Shown one piece after another: positions 1 to 348 of a stretch of 350 bases of DNA. The stretch lies in NCBI RefSeq assembly GCF_003334765.1, contig NZ_QOWT01000131.1; one strand, written 5' to 3'. Source of the stretch: Escherichia coli (GTDB lineage: Bacteria > Pseudomonadota > Gammaproteobacteria > Enterobacterales > Enterobacteriaceae). The position numbers were made by a program, and so were the translations under genes. The stretch's first letter is position 1. Each line of letters begins with the position of its first letter. The notes below the pieces were generated by a model. It was not told the origin of the DNA. It saw nothing but the letters and a program-made list of their open reading frames with translations, and made no database searches.

Positions 1-348
1 CGGGAATGGCTGATTCTGAACATGGCGGGACTGGAGCGTGAAGAATTCCGGGTGCTGTATCTGAATAACCAGAATCAGCTGATTGCCGGTGAAACCCTCT
101 TCACCGGCACCATCAACCGCACGGAAGTCCATCCCCGGGAGGTGATTAAACGCGCCCTGCACCACAATGCCGCTGCCGTGGTGCTGGCACACAATCACCC
201 GTCCGGTGAAGTCACACCCAGCAAGGCAGACCGCCTTATCACGGAACGTCTGGTACAGGCACTGGGCCTGGTGGATATCCGGGTACCGGACCATCTGATA
301 GTCGGTGGCAGCCAGGTTTTCTCCTTTGCGGAACACGGTCTGCTTTAA
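1..348 (+). CDS. yeeS: RadC-like JAB/MPN+ (JAMM) domain protein, UPF0758 family (YeeS/YkfG/YfjY-like); 5'-partial, C-terminal ~115 codons plus stop
   Basis: Seen in sequence: frame +1 has no stop from nt 1 to the TAA at 346..348 (nt 1..21 read R-E-W-L-I-L-N before the first Met at 22). The translation contains the JAMM signature [14 protein letters not shown] and a C-terminal ...[24 protein letters not shown] typical of RadC-like proteins. CTG-rich codon usage fits Enterobacteriaceae. Established knowledge: the H-x-H-x7-S-x2-D motif defines the JAB/MPN+ metalloenzyme fold. The symbol yeeS is from recalled similarity to the E. coli cryptic-prophage paralogs; I cannot separate yeeS from ykfG or yfjY without an alignment, so read the symbol as family-level. 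Confidence 0.88.
85..108. repeat. Perfect 9-bp inverted repeat (gccggtgaa / ttcaccggc) with a 6-nt spacer (accctc); potential stem-loop within the coding region
   Basis: Read directly: 85..93 gccggtgaa; 100..108 ttcaccggc is its exact reverse complement. It lies in frame over codons A-G-E-T-L-F-T-G. Its existence is certain; any function is unknown. Confidence 0.5.
190..231 (+). other. JAMM/MPN+ metal-binding motif H-x-H-x(7)-S-x(2)-D (predicted Zn2+ ligands His57, His59, Asp70, numbered from the Met at nt 22)
   Basis: Codons 190..192 CAC (H), 196..198 CAC (H), 220..222 AGC (S), 229..231 GAC (D), giving [14 protein letters not shown]. Spacing matches the canonical JAMM signature exactly. Candidate upstream glutamates (E35 or E40 in RTEVHPRE) could supply the catalytic Glu, but which one cannot be decided without a structural alignment. 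Confidence 0.85.

Follow-up and report, generated by a model that had tools for sequence, protein, structure and literature searches.

Short inverted repeats are abundant in the genes of Escherichia coli, and 233,730 of them have been counted in the coding regions of strain K-12 (PMC5941160). The palindrome studied here lies in a 350-nt stretch of E. coli DNA (hereafter, the window). It resembles these repeats in being short, perfect and located within an open reading frame, and in having arms built from reverse-complement codon pairs. Like coincidental inverted repeats of coding sequences, it is restricted to one lineage and is not accompanied by covariation. With a stem of 10 bp it belongs to the long end of the distribution, the mean arm length being 5.75 bp for non-coding repeats (PMC5941160). 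Template switching has been linked to repeats of this kind: (i) quasi-palindrome-associated template-switch mutation is documented in E. coli (PMC7202029); (ii) imperfect inverted repeats of proteobacteria have been suggested to become perfect through template switching (PMC5941160); (iii) the same process has been proposed to account for multi-nucleotide nonsynonymous changes in yeast genes (PMC8604942); (iv) the creation of RNA hairpins by this process has been described (bioRxiv 10.1101/2021.04.15.439925). The locus can also be compared with RadC-like JAB/JAMM proteins, whose conserved A-x-E-x-L-F-x-G-T segment is encoded by the palindrome; this likeness, however, concerns the identity of the gene and not the hairpin. 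One such protein, the E. coli paralog YfjY, has been renamed LfgB and was reported to be a protease that cleaves the antitoxin MqsA (PMC10846083). The palindrome in yeeS is very probably a lineage-specific, non-selected by-product of the codons for this conserved protease motif, a reading that draws on direct observation of its anatomy, its restriction to one clade, its ancestral state, free wobble variation and the lack of compensation.

The window carries, on the plus strand and in frame 1, the 3' two-thirds of a yeeS-type RadC-like JAB domain gene (positions 1 to 348, stop codon at 346-348). It is 100% identical to the corresponding DNA of E. coli strain D8, where the full-length gene occupies positions 5872-6348 of the extracted locus (L001). 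At a threshold of at least 90% identity, 12,910 matches to the window were found; they came from 4,797 of the 5,426 complete E. coli genomes searched and were annotated as JAB domain protein, yeeS or radC. In D8 the gene is part of a CP4-44-type genomic island (gene order: GTPase, Ag43 adhesin, DUF932, antirestriction protein, JAB gene, DUF987, cbeA/cbtA toxin-antitoxin). Residues 38-157 of the protein matched Pfam family PF04002 (RadC-like JAB) at 7.3e-45, and a match to Prok-JAB was found too. The NCBIfam RadC model TIGR00608 scored 146 bits against a cutoff of 133.85, and the solved RadC homologue 2QLC matched the host protein at 1.8e-25. By these profile matches the host gene is a clear member of the RadC-like JAB/JAMM family.

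The JAMM/MPN+ motif consists of an upstream conserved Glu followed by HxHx7Sx2D. The latter, a metal-binding motif of 14 residues, was read from the sequence and from the Pfam RadC and Prok-JAB matches at positions 190-231 on the plus strand. In the alignment with 2QLC, the segment RHETITIGT of that protein stands opposite AGETLFTGT of the host protein; over a longer stretch, ILRHETITIGTL stands opposite a partner segment of 12 residues. The Glu encoded by GAA at positions 91-93 (plus strand), within the 5' arm of the palindrome, aligns with a Glu of 2QLC and recurs in at least 90% of the 93 distinct segments taken from homologues. It is probably the upstream Glu of the JAMM motif, and a catalytic role is likewise probable. 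The residue before this Glu is Gly in the yeeS clade and His in ykfG, yfjY/lfgB, most enterobacterial relatives and 2QLC; Gly in place of His beside the probable catalytic Glu might alter protease activity or specificity.

The sequence-only reading that preceded this work had noticed a 9-bp inverted repeat, gccggtgaa (85-93) and ttcaccggc (100-108), which was recovered letter for letter inside the open reading frame. A repeat search of the window extended it by one pair (T84-A109). The resulting arms, TGCCGGTGAA at 84-93 and TTCACCGGCA at 100-109 on the plus strand, are 10 nt long, 100% complementary and separated by 6 nt. The 5' arm comprises the third base of an Ile codon (ATT) and the codons for Ala (GCC), Gly (GGT) and Glu (GAA). 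The loop ACCCTC (94-99, plus strand) codes for Thr (ACC) and Leu (CTC), and the 3' arm comprises the codons for Phe (TTC), Thr (ACC) and Gly (GGC) and the first base of a Thr codon (ACC). Positions 82-111 accordingly read att gcc ggt gaa acc ctc ttc acc ggc acc. This stem is the longest perfect hairpin of the 350-nt window. Among 20,000 dinucleotide-preserving shuffles of the window, searched for perfect stems with loops of 3-10 nt, 0.98% contained a stem of 9 bp or more and 0.23% one of 10 bp or more. The earlier estimate of one in a hundred windows was hence accurate for 9 bp, and at these rates some 30-140 such hairpins are expected by chance per 5-Mb genome when counted in 350-nt windows.

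The isolated hairpin was predicted to fold at -16.7 kcal/mol. Its 56-nt neighbourhood reached -20.2 kcal/mol, corresponding to z = -3.5 relative to dinucleotide shuffles and to z = -2.8 to -3.1 relative to synonymous recodings. In folds of the whole window (z = -1.9) the hairpin was predicted in both the minimum-energy and the centroid structure. Ribosomes in translation, like replication forks, are generally considered able to unwind hairpins of about -17 kcal/mol.

The reading frame and the peptide A-G-E-T-L-F-T-G proposed at the outset were correct. The arms code for Ala-Gly-Glu (GCC GGT GAA) and Phe-Thr-Gly (TTC ACC GGC), and the stem is composed of the reverse-complement codon pairs GCC/GGC, GGT/ACC and GAA/TTC, in which first codon positions pair with third positions and second with second. 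The Ala, Glu, Phe and Gly of the arms are part of the conserved x-A-x-E-x-L-F-x-G-T motif. Synonymous recodings were generated in two ways, from the codon usage of the island and by shuffling the codons that the window itself contains. Of these recodings, 0.6-2.6% had a Watson-Crick stem of 9 bp or more at the exact site, or 7-10% with G-U pairs allowed, compared with a random expectation of 4^-9 (about 4e-6) for such a stem at a fixed site. The peptide thus accounts for most of the effect, but suitable codon choice was needed as well. Only 0.3-0.8% of the synonymous recodings folded locally as well as the real sequence, which in the proposed free-energy comparison with codon-shuffled controls thus surpassed 99.2-99.7% of them.

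To compare the site across the family, codons from about 160 homologous loci, taken from species-representative genomes and IMG/VR, were threaded onto the protein alignment. All 12 copies with 96-100% protein identity had AGE..FTG, with TTC replaced by TTT in two. At 77-82% identity, every one of at least 41 copies (from Citrobacter, Kluyvera, Mixta, Siccibacter, Franconibacter, Yersinia, Buttiauxella and others) had His, encoded by CAT or CAC, opposite ACC, AGC, AGT or GCC. The eight copies at about 71% identity all read L-A-H-E-T-L-F-T-G-T with His encoded by CAC. These His-bearing copies had two to three central mismatches, and compensation was found in none of them. The perfect stem is therefore confined to the yeeS clade, and all sister clades in other Enterobacterales carry His. 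Deeper relatives had S, N, R, W, T, L, F, V, M, C, Y or Q at this position, while A, E, F, G and T of the motif were largely conserved.

The same picture emerged within E. coli K-12 MG1655, whose yeeS contains the perfect palindrome. The corresponding codons are ATT GCC CAT GAA ACG CTC TTC ACC GGC ACG in ykfG and ATT GCC CAC GAA ACC CTG TTT GCC GGT TCT in yfjY/lfgB. When the site was thus compared in paralogs and orthologs, as had been suggested at the outset, the middle of the stem was absent, and uncompensated, in two of the three K-12 paralogs and in every sister clade. The islands that harbour the three K-12 genes share the same gene order; given this shared order, a hairpin needed for operon expression would be expected in all three.

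A neighbour-joining tree grouped the yeeS clade with the His-82 clade, and both with the His-71 clade. With this topology, parsimony places His as the ancestral state and Gly as derived on the stem branch of yeeS, so that the Gly codon GGT at 88-90 (plus strand) is a derived state that differs from the ancestral His codon (CAT/CAC) by CA->GG at 88-89. The ancestor, GCC CAT GAA/TTC ACC GGC, was a quasi-palindrome of 4 + 4 pairs with two adjacent central mismatches. Restoring CAT in the window weakened the predicted local fold from -20.2 to -10.3 kcal/mol.

These data show how the palindrome probably came about as a by-product. Ala (GCN) and Gly (GGC), as well as Glu (GAA) and Phe (TTC), have reverse-complement codons and occur together in the conserved motif; owing to these codons, any family member with the residues already possesses a 4 + 4 bp quasi-palindrome. 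Only in the yeeS lineage did the variable residue before Glu go from His (CAT) to Gly (GGT). As GGT happens to be the reverse complement of the opposing Thr codon ACC, the two central mismatches closed to give the perfect 10-bp stem. The hairpin should be able to form in mRNA or single-stranded DNA (about -17 kcal/mol predicted); nothing points to its being read by any machinery, and we infer that it is without function. Of the three readings offered from the sequence alone (structure in the mRNA, a palindrome bound by a protein, or the outcome of peptide and codon choice), it is the last that the comparative data support, while the first two were not borne out. The feature is an ordinary one and matters little in itself. 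It illustrates how long perfect palindromes arise inside genes from conserved residues whose codons are reverse complements of one another (here Ala/Gly, Glu/Phe and Gly/Thr; elsewhere in the window Leu/Gln, Ile/Asn and His/Val). Such palindromes can seem significant relative to shuffles and yet fail comparative tests.

The step from His to Gly might also have occurred by a quasi-palindrome template switch, in which, during replication, the nascent strand folds back and copies the opposite arm. Two adjacent substitutions within a single arm by which an imperfect repeat becomes perfect are the mark attributed to this process. The perfect stem would then have been made in a single step, with CA->GG and the replacement of His by Gly as a side effect. 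This explanation, which we consider unlikely, concerns origin only: the resulting hairpin would be equally non-functional, and the explanation is compatible with the preferred reading on function. It would account for an imperfect ancestral repeat next to a perfect derived one, for an adjacent dinucleotide change confined to one arm, and for the finding that neither of the intermediates GAT and CGT occurred at 88-90 among 102 yeeS-clade sequences; the mechanism, moreover, is established in E. coli (PMC7202029). However, the perfect palindrome was the criterion by which the site had been selected, and a change towards complementarity was thus guaranteed and is not independent evidence. The yeeS branch is long, with 36 parsimony-inferred substitutions in 345 nt, and undivided, as there are no sequences between 82% and 96% protein identity. 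Six adjacent pairs of substitutions fall on it compared with 3.7 expected at random (P = 0.14), and family members differ widely at this residue (H, G, S, N, R, W, T, L, F, V, M and others). On a branch of this length, with so many substitutions and this P value, a double hit in one weakly constrained codon is unremarkable, and two ordinary substitutions explain CA->GG equally well. The event shares with documented template-switch mutations an imperfect ancestor, a perfect derivative and a multi-nucleotide change of one arm that alters an amino acid, but differs from them in that it is deduced from a long branch with frequent double substitutions, whose number does not exceed expectation. If true, a template switch would have forced His to Gly beside the probable catalytic Glu, and the change would afterwards have been carried into most E. 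coli along with the yeeS-type island. It would be a natural bacterial example of template switching that drives an amino-acid change in a conserved active-site motif and, if shown, would extend to a bacterial coding sequence a mechanism known until now mainly from non-coding bacterial DNA, yeast and primate genomes.

Variation within the yeeS clade was then surveyed. Metagenome contigs were scanned with a DNA pattern anchored on the flanks at 67-78 and 130-140, which yielded 120 loci; together with the earlier loci, the yeeS-clade set comprised 102 sequences and 91 haplotypes. Two synonymous changes disrupted the stem while leaving the peptide intact: ACC->ACA in three contigs (G.A mismatch) and GCC->GCG in one (G.G mismatch). 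Three further changes with unchanged peptide, ACC->ACT in three contigs, TTC->TTT in two and GGC->GGT in one, keep a G.U pair in RNA and break the symmetry of the DNA. Four nonsynonymous singletons were also located in the stem. Compensating changes beside these stem variants were not detected among the 102 sequences. Hence, identical peptides with uncompensated synonymous changes that destroy the complementarity (ACA three times, GCG once) do exist, the very observation that had been named in advance as speaking against selection on the stem.

Five of the seven wobble sites of the stem were polymorphic in the yeeS clade. Diversity at these sites averaged 0.031; over all third positions the mean was 0.087 and the median 0.022 (permutation P 0.15), although the exact flank anchors at 67-78 and 130-140 may depress diversity nearby; wobble sites throughout 60-140 were as quiet as those of the stem. 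The stem-breaking variants were all rare, none exceeding about 3% of haplotypes, and the exact 40-mer with the palindrome occurred in 4,489 of the 4,878 E. coli records that matched, counted as presence per record and not per copy. In view of these rare variants and the nearly fixed 40-mer, the yeeS-clade hairpin might, as far as this sample goes, be under weak purifying selection. As a separate observation, synonymous diversity in the yeeS clade was uneven, with many high-frequency polymorphisms in the 3' half of the window, and DNA identity to the sister clades was uneven as well (0.82-0.83 over 22-140, 0.66-0.74 over 142-345). Such a pattern is typical of mosaic or gene-converted paralog families; part of it perhaps stems from pattern-based sampling.

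A hairpin specific to the yeeS clade could in principle serve as a pause site, as a site of RNase III/E processing or stability control, or as a modulator of yeeT-cbeA-cbtA expression. Its predicted stability (-16.7 kcal/mol alone, -20.2 in context), its retention in predicted whole-window folds, its rarity among synonymous recodings and its near-fixation in the yeeS clade would agree with such a role. Nevertheless, a functional mRNA hairpin is highly improbable given its absence from paralogs and sister clades despite the same operon layout, the uncompensated synonymous variants that break it, a wobble-site diversity no lower than that of neighbouring sites, covariation that does not exceed slid-register controls and the lack of an Rfam match. 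Among the 93 distinct segments, the three central pairs were unpaired in 71, 42 and 52, respectively. The outer and inner pairs track the conserved Ala/Gly and Glu/Phe codons, whose wobble positions vary freely: the third base of the Gly codon was C in 62 segments, U in 10 and another base in 20, and that of the Ala codon was C in 45, U in 9 and another base in 39. Double changes numbered 52 in the true register and 22-61 in registers slid by one to three columns, i.e. there was no excess. A covariation signal obtained by pair shuffling (65.7% versus 63.2% paired; a value as high in 0 of 500 shuffles) was not accepted as evidence because the effect is small, the sequences share ancestry, one of them had supplied the structure, and slid registers gave equal or higher values. 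Over the 93 distinct sequences, pairs were thus neither maintained nor compensated above controls, contrary to what is expected of a conserved structured RNA, and the comparative data do not support an mRNA structural element.

Complementary middle codons have arisen independently in distant homologues from two Methylotenera MAGs (L037 and L042) and a Citrobacter sp. (L069), namely Thr ACT with Ser AGT, and Ala GCT with Ser AGC. At the RNA level the stem has the full 10 pairs in L037 and L042, and nine of 10 with one mismatch in L069. Stems of this kind evidently recur in the motif by way of different residue pairs, without excess over the slid-register controls. A peak of conservation specific to the stem was also considered and rejected: sliding-window DNA identity between yeeS and 20 sister loci was 0.82-0.83 over 22-140 and 0.66-0.79 elsewhere, a plateau far wider than the stem, and a similar peak in identity to the sister clades (0.80-0.81) was found in the upstream antirestriction gene.

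The window was also inspected for known RNA elements and expression signals. A scan against Rfam 15 with a permissive E-value gave best scores of 16.7-18.3 bits (E 0.4-0.9) compared with gathering thresholds of 34-47, and these sub-threshold matches (a snoRNA, a lncRNA and Pseudomonas P26) were regarded as chance hits. Neither terminator-like nor promoter-like sites were predicted on either strand of the window. Like rho-independent terminators and attenuators, the palindrome has a G+C-rich stem of about 10 bp and a short loop; unlike them, it is situated in the middle of an open reading frame and is not conserved. On the plus strand the stem is followed by CCATCAACC, and the T/U run that accompanies the G+C-rich hairpin of an intrinsic terminator was found on neither strand.

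The perfect dyad symmetry with its 6-bp spacer also raises the question of a role at the DNA level, as the site of a dimeric regulator, or as a cruciform or single-stranded hairpin used in recombination or transfer of the island. We regard such a role as extremely improbable: the palindrome occupies a mid-gene position without a promoter-like signal close by, is the sole copy in the 12-23 kb of each island and in all loci, is not kept in related islands of identical gene order, and has its symmetry broken by the TTC->TTT, ACC->ACT/ACA and GGC->GGT variants. No copy was found outside this gene in the islands or in the 284 loci, and confinement to a single gene argues against an operator or a repeated (REP-like) element. 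The arrangement GGTGA-N8-TCACC presumably bears a loose similarity to CRP-type half-sites and was taken as a lead only; the CRP-like site was dropped in view of its non-canonical spacing, its mid-ORF position and its unconserved sequence.

Further repeats were observed in the window. A second perfect inverted repeat of 10 nt, GCTGATTCTG at 9-18 and CAGAATCAGC at 70-79, has 51 nt between its arms, and a direct near-repeat of the arm at 9-18 is present at 54-65. The arms code for L-I-L and Q-N-Q and likewise derive from reverse-complement codons, in this case Leu CTG/Gln CAG and Ile ATT/Asn AAT. At least two pairs of 10-mer inverted repeats were present in about 10% of codon-permuted windows. 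A third repeat, with nine of 10 positions complementary, consists of CCTGCACCAC at 156-165 and GTGGTGCTGG at 178-187, where His-His (CACCAC) faces Val-Val (GTGGTG). The yeeS-branch substitutions at 163, 164, 181 and 183 (Phe->His, Ile->Val) all create complementarity, and their reversion led to a predicted loss of about 6 kcal/mol of folding energy. Together with the main stem, this repeat explains the advantage of about 12 kcal/mol in predicted folding that the yeeS clade has over its sister clades, whose G+C content is similar. A branch-wide gain of RNA structure was not significant: relative to the inferred ancestor the minimum free energy changed by -2.1 kcal/mol, compared with +10.3 +/- 7.6 kcal/mol for random substitutions of matching type (z = -1.6, P ~0.06), a result that depends on how ambiguous ancestral sites are filled.

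The sequence CCGGTGAA(G) at 203-211, in the part of the JAMM motif that encodes P-S-G-E, recurs from 86-93. Positions 203-211 are a 9-nt perfect complement of 99-107 and thus an alternative long-range partner for the 3' arm; sister clades have TCC GGC GAG at this site, so that the pairing is not conserved. Finally, the yeeS gene of K-12 (positions 2826-3272 of L284) is annotated 30 nt shorter at its 5' end than the D8 gene, at 447 as opposed to 477 nt. Upstream of the JAB gene lies yeeR in K-12, where it abuts or overlaps yeeS, and the antirestriction gene in D8; these different neighbours indicate that island content upstream of the JAB gene varies between strains.
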